Assembly (NCBI GenBank): GCA_018894075.1
Contig: JAHIEB010000039.1
Span: 1 to 28,629 of the forward strand
Reading direction: 5' to 3'
Length of the DNA: 28,629 nucleotides
Source: Patescibacteria group bacterium
GTDB taxonomy: Bacteria; Patescibacteriota; Minisyncoccia; Minisyncoccales; Staskawiczbacteraceae
The translations under genes and the position numbers were made by a program. The notes under the pieces are model-generated. The model ran no database searches. It was not told the DNA's origin and saw only the letters and a list, made by a program, of their open reading frames with translations. This document shows, one piece after another, positions 11,379-23,076 of the stretch. Numbering within the stretch: the first letter of the stretch is position 1; each line of letters begins with the position of its first letter.

Positions 11379-11861
11379 ATGATTACCCTTTCAGCAGAAT
11401 TTTTTTTGTTCTCTTCGGCAGTATTATTGTTTTTGCTTATTGATATCGTCTTTTTAGTTTGGTTTTGGAAGCTGAAGAAAAAAGCAAAAATGTTCTTTGA
11501 GGGGAAAAAGATAAAGGACGTTGAAGATGTTTTAACCAACCAAATGCAAAAAACAAAGAAGTTGGAGGCCGAATGTGTGAATCTGCAAAACAAGGCAAAC
11601 AGTCAGGCCAGCATTTCAGAAAAAACATTCCAGAAAATAGGGGTGGTAAGATTTAATCCTTTCAGCGATATGGGTGGAAACCAGAGTTTTGCCGTCACCC
11701 TGCTGGACCAGAAGAACAACGGCGTGATACTATCCAGCTTGTTCATTGCGGAGGGAAACAGGGTTTATGCAAAATCAATAAGGGCTGGGCAGTCAGATTA
11801 TCCTTTGTCAAAGGAGGAAAAAGAATCATTAGAAAAAGCAATAAATGGACAAAAGAAATAA
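11379..11861 (+). CDS. DUF4446 family protein
   Basis: N-terminal TM helix, coiled coil, QKIGVVRFNPFSDMGGNQSFAVTLLD. Confidence 0.85.
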   Translation: MITLSAEFFLFSSAVLLFLLIDIVFLVWFWKLKKKAKMFFEGKKIKDVEDVLTNQMQKTKKLEAECVNLQNKANSQASISEKTFQKIGVVRFNPFSDMGGNQSFAVTLLDQKNNGVILSSLFIAEGNRVYAKSIRAGQSDYPLSKEEKESLEKAINGQKK

Positions 11862-13332
11862 TAAAAAAAGAGCTCCCGTGGTAGTTGTTTTGGGCCATGT
11901 TGACCACGGCAAGTCCTCGCTTTTGGAAGCGATCAGGGATTTTGAGATTACTTCTAAAGAATCGGGGGGCATAACCCAGCATGTGGGAGCATATGAAGTG
12001 GATCATAAAGATCAAAAGATTACCTTTATTGACACCCCCGGCCACGAGGCTTTTTCTGCAATAAGGGCCAGGGGAGCCCAAGTTGCTGATATTGCCGTAC
12101 TGGTGGTGGATTCAGCCGACTCTGTCCAGCCACAAACAAAAGAGGCAATAACTGTTATCAATAAAGCCGAGATTCCTATGATTGTTGCCTTGAATAAGAT
12201 TGACAAACCAACAGCTGATCCAGAGAAGATAAAAAGAGAGCTTTCTGCCCAGAATGTTTTTGTAGAATCAATGGGAGGAAAGGTACCTAGTGTTAATATA
12301 TCAGCCAAGACCAAAGAAGGAATGAACGAACTGCTTGATTTAATACTATTAGTGGCAGATTTAGAGGCCTTAGAGGCAGATGTTGAATCTCCCGCAGAAG
12401 GAGTTGTAATAGAATCCAACACAGATAGCTTCAGGGGGCCAGCAGCAACCTTGCTTGTCCAAAAAGGCACATTGAAGATAAAAGATGTCATAGGAACAGA
12501 TACTGCCTGCGCGAAGATTAAAGGACTAGAAGATTTTCAAGGAAGGGCCATAAAGAAAGCCATTCCTTCCCAGCCCACTATTGTTTTGGGTTTTGACAAA
12601 GCTCCATGGGTTGGAGAAAAGTTTCAGACCTTTGACAGCCTAGACCAGGCTGCCGGCAACATGAAGGAAGTCAAAAGAGCCGACCTCTCTTTTTCTCTTA
12701 AAGAAGGCCAGAAAGTTTTAAACATTATCTTAAAAGCAGATGTGGTAGGGTCTTTAGAGGCCCTAGTTGAGATACTAAAGGAACTGCCTCAAGAGAAGGT
12801 AGCTTTAAGAATTTTAAAGAGCGAGATAGGGGATATTGTCGAGTCTGATACAAAAGTGGCCGAAACGTCTAAAGCCCAAATAGTGGGTTTTAGAGTGAAG
12901 GTAAACCCTGGTGTTTTACAGGCAATGAGAAAAGACAAAGAAAAGAGGGTAAAGATTAAAACTTTTGATGTGATATATAATCTGGTTCAGGAGGTCAGGC
13001 AGATGATGGAAAAAAATATAGCGCCAGAGGTTGTAAGGCAGGATATAGGGAAGATGAAGACTCTGGTGGTTTTTTGGGCAGAAGGCAGAAGACAAATCGT
13101 GGGAGGAAAAGTCTTTGAAGGAGAATTTAAAAAAGGATTAAAGCTCGAGGTCCAAAGAAATTCTGAAAAAGTAGGCGAAGGAAAGATTATAAACCTGCAG
13201 AGGAATAAAAAAGACGTGGACAGGGCCATAAAGGGAGATGAATGCGGTATTTTATTTGAAGGTTCTGTTAAAATAGAAGAAGGCGACATCATAGTTGCTT
13301 TTTCTGAAGAGAGGGTGAGAGACACTTTATGA
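11845..13332 (+). CDS. infB: Translation initiation factor IF-2 (short form, no N-terminal domain)
   Basis: GHVDHGKS, GGITQHVGAY, DTPGHEAF, NKID; C-terminal ECGI motif. Confidence 0.97.
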   Translation: MDKRNNKKRAPVVVVLGHVDHGKSSLLEAIRDFEITSKESGGITQHVGAYEVDHKDQKITFIDTPGHEAFSAIRARGAQVADIAVLVVDSADSVQPQTKEAITVINKAEIPMIVALNKIDKPTADPEKIKRELSAQNVFVESMGGKVPSVNISAKTKEGMNELLDLILLVADLEALEADVESPAEGVVIESNTDSFRGPAATLLVQKGTLKIKDVIGTDTACAKIKGLEDFQGRAIKKAIPSQPTIVLGFDKAPWVGEKFQTFDSLDQAAGNMKEVKRADLSFSLKEGQKVLNIILKADVVGSLEALVEILKELPQEKVALRILKSEIGDIVESDTKVAETSKAQIVGFRVKVNPGVLQAMRKDKEKRVKIKTFDVIYNLVQEVRQMMEKNIAPEVVRQDIGKMKTLVVFWAEGRRQIVGGKVFEGEFKKGLKLEVQRNSEKVGEGKIINLQRNKKDVDRAIKGDECGILFEGSVKIEEGDIIVAFSEERVRDTL

Positions 13333-13673
13333 GCAAAAAAGTAGAAAAGGTAAATTCTCTGATTCAAAGAGAGCTTGGGAGCATACTCTTAAAGGATGTT
13401 GAGTTCCCGCAAGGGTCTTTGGTCACTATTACCAGGGTTGAGACCTCAATAGATTTAATCAATGCCAGGGTATATATTTCTGTCCTGCCCCAGGAAGGAG
13501 CAAAAAGAGTATTAGAGATTTTAGGAAAGCTCGTTTTCTTTTTACAGAAAAGAATAAATAAGAGGCTTAAAATGAGGCCTATACCGAAGATACGGTTTAT
13601 TGAGGAAAAAGAGACTGGCAAAGCCGCCAGGATAGAAAGCATTTTAGAGGATATAAGGAATCAAGAAGGTTGA
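13329..13673 (+). CDS. rbfA: 30S ribosome-binding factor RbfA
   Basis: Follows infB; VTITRVETS.DL..ARVYISV and MRPIPKIRF motifs. Confidence 0.93.
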   Translation: MSKKVEKVNSLIQRELGSILLKDVEFPQGSLVTITRVETSIDLINARVYISVLPQEGAKRVLEILGKLVFFLQKRINKRLKMRPIPKIRFIEEKETGKAARIESILEDIRNQEG

Positions 13674-13697
13674 AAAAAATAGAATTAAAAAATATTT

Positions 13698-14498
13698 ATG
13701 TTTTCTTTGGACCCTCGAGGGGGGCATAATCGATATAATTTTAAGATCGATTTCTTTGAAAAGTGGACGCCGGAGATGGCCTATGTTTTAGGCTTTTTAT
13801 ATGCAGATGGGTATATTGAAGATGCGGGAAAATCATCAAGGACTCAATATATATCTTTTGGCAGCAAAGACAAAGAGATTATCGAGTTAATAAGATCGGT
13901 ATTAGGATCTAAGCACATAATAAATTATAGAATTCCTAGCAAGGTTTTTTTCCCTGGCGGAAAAACGTATAAATGTGCCGAATTCTATAAATTAAGGATC
14001 GGCAGTAAGAAATGGTTCAGAGATCTTTTGCGGTTAGGGCTTGTCCCAAAAAAATCACTAATAATAAAATTCCCAAATAACATCCCCGATAAATATTTCG
14101 GACATTTCGTCCGAGGATACTTTGACGGAGATGGATGTGTCACTATTAAAAGAGGCAGGGGCGCAAGAGGGCAGACGATTCTAAAGGGAGTAGCCGTCAT
14201 TTTTACTAGCGGGAGCAGACTCTTTTTAGAGGGGTTAAGGAACCGGGCGCATCAAATTGTTGGTTTTAGGAAAAGGATTGTTTATTACGGTAGCCGTAGC
14301 AGGGCATGCTATTTGAAATATAATACGGCCGAAAGCGTGAGATGGTTCCAACTTTTTTATGGCGATTGCTTCAACCTATTTTTAAAAAGAAAATATAATG
14401 TCTTCCAAAAATACTTTCAATTGCGCCCAGTTAGGATTGACAAAGAGACAGCAAAGATATTGAATAAAGGATCATGGCCAGGTATCCAAGTAGTTTAA
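13698..14498 (+). CDS. Free-standing two-motif LAGLIDADG endonuclease-like protein; last 23 nt overlap tRNA-Cys
   Basis: AYVLGFLYADGYI and HFVRGYFDGDGCV motifs, LGLVPKKSL linker, FTSGS. Confidence 0.88.
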   Translation: MFSLDPRGGHNRYNFKIDFFEKWTPEMAYVLGFLYADGYIEDAGKSSRTQYISFGSKDKEIIELIRSVLGSKHIINYRIPSKVFFPGGKTYKCAEFYKLRIGSKKWFRDLLRLGLVPKKSLIIKFPNNIPDKYFGHFVRGYFDGDGCVTIKRGRGARGQTILKGVAVIFTSGSRLFLEGLRNRAHQIVGFRKRIVYYGSRSRACYLKYNTAESVRWFQLFYGDCFNLFLKRKYNVFQKYFQLRPVRIDKETAKILNKGSWPGIQVV

Positions 14499-14549
14499 GG
14501 AGACGGTCTGCAAAACCGTTATACGCGGGTGCAATTCCCGCCCTGGCCT
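14476..14549 (+). tRNA. tRNA-Cys(GCA)
   Basis: GGCCAGG/CCTGGCC acceptor stem, ACGGT-CTGCAAA-ACCGT, U73, T-loop TGCAATT. Confidence 0.93.
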
Positions 14550-14556
14550 CAAGTTT

Positions 14557-14639
14557 GCCCGGATGGCGGAATGGCATACGCACAACACTTAAAATGTTGC
14601 GAGGTTTTCCTCATGCGAGTTCGACTCTCGCTCCGGGCA
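14557..14639 (+). tRNA. tRNA-Leu(TAA)
   Basis: GCCCGGA/TCCGGGC acceptor stem, CAACA-CTTAAAA-TGTTG, long variable arm. Confidence 0.95.
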
Positions 14640-14706
14640 CACGCGTTTTTAACTATTTTTGTTCATAAATTTTCTCGATTTTGGCAAAAACAAGTCACGA
14701 GTCGAG

Positions 14707-14732
14707 CCACCTTTTGATTGAGGTGGTTTTTA
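14707..14732 (+). repeat. Copy 1 of a 26-nt hairpin repeat (terminator-like)
   Basis: CCACCTTTTGATTGAGGTGGTTTTTA; 24/26 identical to 20077-20102. Confidence 0.7.
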
Positions 14733-14853
14733 TTTACCGAAAATCCCTTGCTCTGCAATTAAAACATGAGGGGCTGTGGTGTGGGGATATTATTTCTCAA
14801 GAAAGTTTTACATAAGCGGAAATAATCTGATTAAATTTTTAACTATGCAAACG

Positions 14854-22343: not shown

Positions 22344-22419
22344 TGGTGGGCCCGGATGGAGTCGAACCATCCACCTATTGTTTATAAGACAATTGTTCTA
22401 ACCGCTGAACTACGGGCCC
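22344..22419 (-). tRNA. tRNA-Ile(TAT)
   Basis: GGGCCCG/CGGGCCC acceptor stem, ATTGT-CTTATAA-ACAAT anticodon arm, GGTTCGACTCC, A73, encoded CCA. Confidence 0.9.
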
Positions 22420-23076
22420 ATATTTCTCCGAAATAGCTTTTATCGCCATTAGTATCTTCTCTGATAATCTAGCATTTCCTATGCCAAGCGTGCAAGTTCC
22501 ATGCCCAAAACGGCCCTTGTGGTTTATATTATACGAGAAAGTGTTTTTGATATATGGTTTGATAAATTGCGTGGTTGGCACTCCTATCACCTCTGACCAA
22601 AAAGAAATTTCTTTATTTATATCCATGTCGCTGTATAGATGGAGTTGAACATGAAATTTCTGTTTAGGAACTTTGAGAGATTTCATCAACCAAAGAGCAA
22701 AGAATTTAATTATCGAAGGATCTGTGTTTGATAGATAAAGCGACGAATTAGCAGTTTTAAGACCTTCACCCCAATAAAGAAAGACGCCCGCCATATAAAG
22801 CTCCTTATTAGTAAAAGGAAATAATTTTCTTTTCTCGTTATTTAAACAATAGTTCAGTCTGACTTCTTTCTTCTTCCGTTTTGTTTCTCTGCACCTTTCA
22901 ATTCTAATCTGGCTATTATCTCGGAGCTCCCTTATCCTCGCCTCAGGAAGGGGATAAGATTTTAGCCAGGAGCTAAGCGTGCTTTTACTGACATGAATGG
23001 CTTGTTTTATTTGGCTGTAGCTCATTCCTTGCTCGCGTAGATTTAGAGCTTTATTTTTTAGATCAAAATATGCCAT
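22375..23076 (-). CDS. HTH plus single-motif LAGLIDADG-like protein; last 45 nt overlap tRNA-Ile
   Basis: LNLREQGMSYSQIKQAIHVSKSTLSSWLK (HTH); AGVFLYWGEG motif followed by LYLSNTDPSII. Confidence 0.75.
   Translation of the reverse strand: MAYFDLKNKALNLREQGMSYSQIKQAIHVSKSTLSSWLKSYPLPEARIRELRDNSQIRIERCRETKRKKKEVRLNYCLNNEKRKLFPFTNKELYMAGVFLYWGEGLKTANSSLYLSNTDPSIIKFFALWLMKSLKVPKQKFHVQLHLYSDMDINKEISFWSEVIGVPTTQFIKPYIKNTFSYNINHKGRFGHGTCTLGIGNARLSEKILMAIKAISEKYGPVVQRLEQLSYKQ

Follow-up and report, generated by a model that had tools for sequence, protein, structure and literature searches.

The open reading frame that lies between rbfA and tRNA-Cys in a contig of a Patescibacteria group bacterium is probably an intact, free-standing homing endonuclease gene, with the tRNA-Cys locus as its putative target and with a mode of spread that may resemble that of phage T4 SegB. 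Most known homing endonucleases come from introns, inteins or phage genomes. As a free-standing homing endonuclease the gene belongs to a known kind; its new features are the LAGLIDADG fold, the bacterial chromosome and the docking on a tRNA gene. No description of tRNA-docked LAGLIDADG genes was found in the literature searched. The gene is a member of a large family in cellular chromosomes, which lies flush against essential single-copy tRNA genes and appears to exchange them between lineages.

A LAGLIDADG gene whose end overlaps tRNA-Cys

The window (the whole stretch of DNA analysed, 28,629 nt) is contig JAHIEB010000039.1 of assembly GCA_018894075.1. The initial annotation had described a two-motif LAGLIDADG gene between rbfA and tRNA-Cys, overlapping the tRNA by 23 nt and ending with a stop codon in the D-arm region. 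These points agreed with our own annotation of the locus, in which the following features were located:

11845-13332, infB, upstream of rbfA (Pfam-based annotation)
13329-13673, + strand, rbfA (Pfam RBFA, E 3e-22), the upstream flank and, in this lineage, the left homology arm
13680-13685, + strand, -10-like hexamer TAGAAT, 12 nt 5' of the ATG, read from the sequence
13698-14498, + strand, free-standing two-domain LAGLIDADG homing endonuclease gene, 266 aa
13788-13811, + strand, LAGLIDADG motif 1, LGFLYADG, residues 31-38, catalytic D37
14112-14135, + strand, LAGLIDADG motif 2, RGYFDGDG, residues 139-146, catalytic D145
14476-14498, + strand, overlap of the endonuclease ORF with tRNA-Cys, 23 nt; the last seven codons (WPGIQVV) and the TAA are nucleotides 1-23 of the tRNA
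14476-14550, + strand, tRNA-Cys(GCA), ARAGORN and Rfam, 61.8 bits
14557-14640, + strand, tRNA-Leu(UAA), ARAGORN and Rfam, the second gene of a conserved tRNA pair
14704-14729, + strand, terminator-like hairpin with a T tract, 3' of tRNA-Leu, closing the unit

The overlap is exactly 23 nt, since the ORF ends at 14498 and tRNA-Cys starts at 14476. The TAA (14496-14498) corresponds to nucleotides 21-23 of the tRNA and falls in the 3' part of the D-loop in the cloverleaf fold. The tRNA itself folds into a normal, uninterrupted cloverleaf (z -4.0) and is present as a single copy among the 41 tRNAs of the genome (528 kb in 85 contigs), in which the ORF at 13698-14498 is also the only LAGLIDADG_3 gene. 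We consider tRNA-Cys to be the docking partner of the endonuclease gene and its probable target or co-converted marker, and rbfA lies outside the mobile unit. The GC content of the endonuclease gene (38.4%) is the same as that of the neighbouring genes, suggesting long residence.

Two further open reading frames of 50-64 aa listed at the locus, 14474-14668 (+) and 14431-14583 (-), are spurious read-through of tRNA-Cys and tRNA-Leu, and their frame also yields the 'SAKPLY..GA.P' tails carried by some database homologues. Elsewhere in the window, a second tRNA-docked ORF (22378-23076, - strand) overlaps tRNA-Ile(UAU) at 22344-22419. Pfam finds only an N-terminal HTH in this ORF, which has no PF14528 match and no detectable similarity to the tRNA-Cys endonuclease.

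The product resembles monomeric LAGLIDADG enzymes

Pfam LAGLIDADG_3 (PF14528) matched the 266-aa product in two stretches (E 8.8e-12, 45.6 bits for a cut-off of 22.5). It had been noted from the sequence that both motifs keep an acidic residue before the glycine; alignment of 44 homologues bore this out, D37-G38 and D143-G144-D145-G146 being invariant. All 33 of the 33 family-invariant residues are present in the full-length ORF of the window. The N-terminus MFSLDPRGGHNRY is conserved in the same alignment, and much of the N-terminal segment DPRGGHNRY...FF.KW is invariant. The ATG at 13698 is therefore taken as the true start, and the 240-aa database form (P0001), which starts at M27, as too short.

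The AF2 model (pLDDT 89.5, pTM 0.87) is composed of two alpha-beta-beta-alpha-beta-beta-alpha halves. Residues 261-266, all of which lie inside the seven-codon tail encoded by the tRNA, have a pLDDT below 50, and this tail is predicted to be disordered. The best Foldseek matches of the model were I-Tsp061I, I-AniI, the bI3 maturase, I-OnuI and I-SceI, the values against monomeric LAGLIDADG enzymes being a probability of 1.0, an E value of 1.8e-10 and TM scores of 0.5-0.7. By sequence, the closest solved relative is I-Tsp061I, an archaeal intron enzyme (PDB 2DCH; phmmer E 6.8e-5). By sequence and predicted fold, the protein thus belongs with the monomeric LAGLIDADG enzymes of the I-Tsp061I/I-DmoI type. 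Across the family, dN/dS ranged from 0.04 to 0.17; purifying selection of this strength could just as well reflect a function useful to the host.

The nearest database homologue of the window's copy is only about 70% identical, so that there is no sign of recent movement of this copy, and no same-species empty allele was found for it. These observations fit a stranded relic, that is, a gene that is still open, cuts no available DNA, and is kept by slow loss or because its deletion would disturb tRNA-Cys expression. The ameliorated composition, the decaying copies seen in relatives (see below) and the position of the stop codon beyond the RNase P cleavage site in the window's allele point in the same direction. 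We nevertheless regard a relic as unlikely, since the ORF is full length and carries every family-invariant residue, including both catalytic Asp-Gly pairs, its fold is predicted with confidence, and the whole family is under purifying selection. An intact homing endonuclease gene accounts better for these features.

Empty and occupied alleles in related genomes

The gene order infB-rbfA-tRNA-Cys-tRNA-Leu(UAA) is conserved through the order, in about 28 relatives. The initial annotation had proposed a search for relatives in which rbfA is directly followed by tRNA-Cys, and 17 were found, with an AT-rich spacer of 5-51 nt between the two genes; these are empty alleles. The rbfA|tRNA-Cys site holds a LAGLIDADG gene in four of the approximately 28 relatives (G000, G002, G016 and G034). 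In other genomes a LAGLIDADG gene is found in the spacer between tRNA-Cys and tRNA-Leu (G009, G010, G017 and G030) or just 3' of tRNA-Leu (G003, G006, G020 and G036), and 9-10 relatives carry no endonuclease at any of the three sites. An HNH endonuclease ORF occupies the Cys|Leu spacer instead in two genomes:

L029:542-1057, - strand, HNH ORF of about 171 aa in G029 (Pfam HNH_3/HNH)
L033:2003-2515, + strand, HNH ORF of about 171 aa in G011 (Pfam HNH_3/HNH)

Other genes were also encountered at this locus. In five relatives (L027, L043, L044, L048 and L050) the interval between rbfA and tRNA-Cys contains a DHH/DHHA1-family gene of about 330-347 aa, and a long rbfA-tRNA-Cys gap is therefore not always due to an endonuclease. 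In G013, a large serine recombinase gene with Resolvase, Recombinase and zinc-ribbon domains (L023:3-1406, + strand) abuts tRNA-Cys, with no tRNA-Leu(UAA) 3' of it, an arrangement suggestive of an integrative element at this tRNA locus. When G001 and four further relatives were searched at the DNA level for the tRNA-Cys/tRNA-Leu pair, no match was obtained.

Joint exchange of the endonuclease gene and tRNA-Cys

We compared the occupied allele of G016 with the empty allele of G024, which belongs to the same genus. The two sequences are about 80% identical up to the -10-like TAAAAT box and a few AT-rich bases beyond it, and a clean insertion of about 0.8 kb is present in G016 right after that stretch. 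On the other side of the insertion, the tRNA-Cys genes are only 69% identical, against 98% for the adjacent tRNA-Leu genes, and similarity is normal in the genes farther downstream. This pattern indicates that the endonuclease gene and tRNA-Cys were exchanged as one unit.

The structure of this insertion also bears on the readings in which the ORF would be encoded in an intron or intein, or carried as cargo by a larger integrative element with tRNA-Cys as its attachment site. Such readings have some precedent: rRNA insertions house the majority of the LAGLIDADG genes described from CPR bacteria (PMC11270868), integration commonly takes place at tRNA genes, and the serine recombinase gene of G013 adjoins tRNA-Cys. 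However, relative to the empty allele the insertion consists only of the ORF and the swapped tRNA, accompanied by neither an integrase nor repeats, and a larger integrative element was rejected on this ground. Rfam revealed no intron at the gathering threshold, where only the two tRNAs matched, or at E values up to 1 in the region 13300-14800; together with the uninterrupted tRNA-Cys, this led us to reject an intron-encoded endonuclease or maturase. An intein-associated endonuclease was likewise rejected, as Pfam detected no Hint domain, LAGLIDADG_3 being the sole domain of the 266-aa ORF, and the ORF has its own conserved start. The lack of intron or intein context that had been remarked upon in the initial annotation was thus confirmed, and we hold all these readings to be very improbable. 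The data instead favour a free-standing homing endonuclease gene.

A second comparison involved G002 and G016, which belong to different genera. Their endonucleases share 78% amino acid identity, against 44% for rbfA. At the DNA level, identity rises from about 55% to 80-90% between the rbfA stop codon and the end of tRNA-Leu, and then falls to about 40%, so that the tract of high identity is made up of the endonuclease gene, tRNA-Cys and tRNA-Leu only. Within this tract, a segment of about 100 bp (2041-2131 of the oriented G002 locus, endonuclease residues ~57-90) drops to 46-60% identity with G016. The segment encodes the first beta-sheet region and may be either a mosaic or a fast-evolving DNA-contact region. 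Co-conversion of flanking markers was found, on a comparative basis, in both the G016/G024 and the G002/G016 pairs.

The window's own copy gave a further indication. Its endonuclease is closer to that of G034, from a different family (61%), than to that of the same-genus G002 (55%), whereas rbfA gives the reverse order, the window's gene being closer to that of G002 than to that of G034. Taken together, these sequence comparisons indicate that the endonuclease gene moves horizontally. In G002 (L004/L022), a TGA codon is present at the position of the conserved W23, while the adjacent infB and rbfA genes are open under table 11; this copy is either decaying or restarting at Met27. Movement, purifying selection and the existence of nonsense and split copies form the pattern of invasion, maintenance and decay expected of a homing endonuclease gene.

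We also considered that the protein may have been domesticated, having lost its mobility and acquired a host function tied to the tRNA operon, such as a maturase-like RNA chaperone, a regulator of pre-tRNA processing or a defence of the locus against other invaders. The low dN/dS values, the occurrence of the gene at the same tRNA-Cys position in many Patescibacteria lineages, its neighbour-like composition and the structural matches to bI3 and I-AniI, which are maturases, would all be consistent with this proposal. Yet the gene is patchy, the rbfA|tRNA-Cys site being occupied in a small minority of relatives and all three sites being empty in others, and the same-genus copy of G002 carries a nonsense codon. 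In addition, the gene tree disagrees with the relationships of the hosts, the tRNA gene is transferred along with the endonuclease gene, neither catalytic Asp varies among the homologues, and there is no intron present to splice. Domestication therefore appears quite improbable, and the properties of the locus are better explained by a mobile homing endonuclease gene.

A family of LAGLIDADG genes docked on tRNA genes

Homologues of the protein form more than 2,100 clusters in a set of 5.8 billion proteins, and at least 482 family loci were found in species-representative genomes, nearly all of them labelled Patescibacteria. We fetched 118 loci, which contained 100 family ORFs; 93 of these lie within 130 nt of a tRNA and 41 are directly 5' of tRNA-Cys. 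Most members of the latter group end between -23 and +12 nt from tRNA-Cys, the commonest value being -18.

A quick maximum-likelihood tree (IQ-TREE, with SH-aLRT support) was built. The Cys clade has a support of 91 and contains a sub-clade (98) whose members lie 3' of tRNA-Cys. The tree also holds a Met|Asp clade, together with Cys|Leu, 3'-of-Leu and 5'-of-Leu(gag)/Phe clades, the last three with a support of 100 each. When tRNA-position labels were mapped on the tree, 11 changes were counted against 47 expected by shuffling, and none of 200 shuffles gave a value as low. As judged from the tree and the gene positions, each family clade is docked on one particular tRNA gene, and the clade of the window lies immediately 5' of tRNA-Cys.

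Upstream of the members that lie 5' of tRNA-Cys, the neighbouring gene is more variable. It is rbfA in 22 of the 41 cases (single-sequence phmmer), while in at least four other loci Pfam identified a 3D-domain protein, a flavoprotein, an M23/LysM peptidase or a decarboxylase. Because the upstream gene varies across the 41 loci, tRNA-Cys, and not rbfA, is the constant partner. This result modifies the suggestion of the initial annotation that the gene may be a free-standing element homing into the rbfA-tRNA-Cys junction: its free-standing nature and, on comparative grounds, its horizontal movement were upheld, while specificity for the junction was not. The C-terminal tails of homologues are similarly variable. 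Some are produced by translation of the 5' end of tRNA-Cys, in all three frames, or by read-through of the whole tRNA, and other homologues stop just before tRNA-Cys. Since three frames are used or the tRNA is avoided altogether, we consider the 23-nt overlap to be a by-product of the flush junction rather than a conserved coding feature.

We then examined the linked tRNA-Cys alleles for a polymorphism that might confer immunity to cutting. No difference in the D-arm cleanly separates occupied from empty alleles. In the subclade of the window, seven of eight linked alleles combine a longer D-loop with a pyrimidine at tRNA position 10, an association that is confounded by phylogeny; in the larger subclade, the D-arm is the same as in empty alleles.

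Some of the retrieved loci call for separate mention. Split or truncated family copies are present at L092:2414-3244 (122+154 aa), L098:2609-3139 (177 aa) and L126:2078-2575 (166 aa), and are probably pseudogenes. Seven contigs (L059, L063, L064, L066, L076, L095 and L099) contain a Patescibacteria-type cassette in records titled Bdellovibrionales, Pseudomonadales, Spirochaetia or Pacearchaeota, and mis-binning or mislabelling of these contigs is likely. Phage records yielded distant homologues only, none above 32% identity and most of them associated with introns or inteins.

Transcription context and proposed mechanism

TAGAAT or TAAAAT boxes were found by alignment 22-23 nt 5' of the ATG in G034, G016 and G002, and G024, whose allele is empty, has the same TAAAAT box just 5' of tRNA-Cys. 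A consensus promoter scan called no promoter before the ORF, the -10-like box included. No + strand terminator-like site was called at the rbfA/endonuclease or endonuclease/tRNA-Cys junctions, and a weak one was detected inside the ORF at 13778-13794. We infer that the -10-like box is a candidate promoter, from which the endonuclease gene and the tRNAs would be transcribed together. Genes for RNase P RNA and tmRNA are present in the genome.

The gene is a cassette of about 0.8 kb, with no evident promoter of its own, that sits between the -10-like box, found before tRNA-Cys in empty alleles, and the tRNA +1 position. Given this location, the pre-tRNA-Cys/tRNA-Leu transcript would carry the endonuclease mRNA as its 5' leader. 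In the model that we propose, the enzyme would cut tRNA-Cys loci devoid of the endonuclease gene, either within the tRNA-Cys gene or at its 5' edge. Such a position is suggested by the fact that co-conversion reaches the tRNA side and not rbfA, and by the fact that the tRNA is all that the relatives docked on its 5' side and those docked on its 3' side have in common. Repair templated by an occupied copy would then import the endonuclease gene together with the linked tRNA-Cys allele, and sometimes tRNA-Leu as well. The overall route would correspond to 'intronless homing' as in phage T4 SegB. Since cleavage by RNase P is expected 5' of the stop codon, the processed transcript would be a non-stop mRNA, and one may speculate that this loss of the stop codon limits the dose of the enzyme.

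More generally, and tentatively, Patescibacteria might harbour a guild of free-standing homing endonucleases, made up of several LAGLIDADG clades and the HNH genes, in which each member would have evolved to recognise a single tRNA gene. Members of this guild would reside without promoters in pre-tRNA leaders or spacers, RNase P would make their insertion harmless, and co-conversion would lead to the horizontal replacement of single-copy essential tRNA genes. If this is true, the guild would be a major force in the evolution of tRNA genes in reduced genomes, unusual D-arms included, and a source of many new long-target nucleases. For the family itself, confirmation of the model would mean that a selfish nuclease gene can be harmless without an intron, as 5' processing of the tRNA removes it from the precursor. 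It would also provide a mechanism for horizontal tRNA gene replacement in ultra-small bacteria, and meganuclease engineering could draw on a natural set of monomeric LAGLIDADG enzymes that are specific for tRNA genes.

Comparison with known systems

The protein shares its sequence, Pfam family, fold and two catalytic-Asp motifs with monomeric two-domain enzymes (I-Tsp061I (2DCH), the I-DmoI type, I-AniI, I-OnuI and I-SceI). The genes of these enzymes reside in group I or archaeal introns, within genes for rRNA or proteins; the gene described here lies in neither an intron nor an intein, and its product carries about 26 additional, conserved residues at the N-terminus (DPRGGHNRY...FF.KW). A tRNA gene as homing target, putative in our case, is known from I-Ssp6803I, whose target is the tRNA-fMet gene of Synechocystis. 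In contrast to the endonuclease of the window, I-Ssp6803I has a PD-(D/E)XK fold, and its gene belongs to an intron inserted in the anticodon loop.

A survey of CPR bacteria described LAGLIDADG genes inside 16S and 23S rRNA insertions (PMC11270868). These genes have in common with the present family the host phylum, the superfamily and a target-specific spread into highly conserved RNA genes, but the gene studied here lies beside a tRNA gene and not within it; the word tRNA does not occur in that survey (PMC11270868).

The closest functional analogue of the system, which is known here from comparative data, is SegB of phage T4. According to the abstract of its report (PMC2330249), SegB, a free-standing GIY-YIG homing endonuclease of the T4 tRNA gene cluster, recognises a site with a conserved tRNA motif in it, and the surrounding tRNA genes spread along with the segB gene itself. 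Both systems consist of a free-standing nuclease gene located among tRNA genes, and in the present one comparative evidence points to joint exchange of the endonuclease gene and tRNA-Cys. They differ in that the enzyme is here of the LAGLIDADG and not of the GIY-YIG type, and in that the gene resides in a cellular Patescibacteria chromosome and not in a phage. Furthermore, the gene directly abuts the 5' end of an essential tRNA gene that is present in a single copy, and the clades of its family are specific for different tRNA genes.
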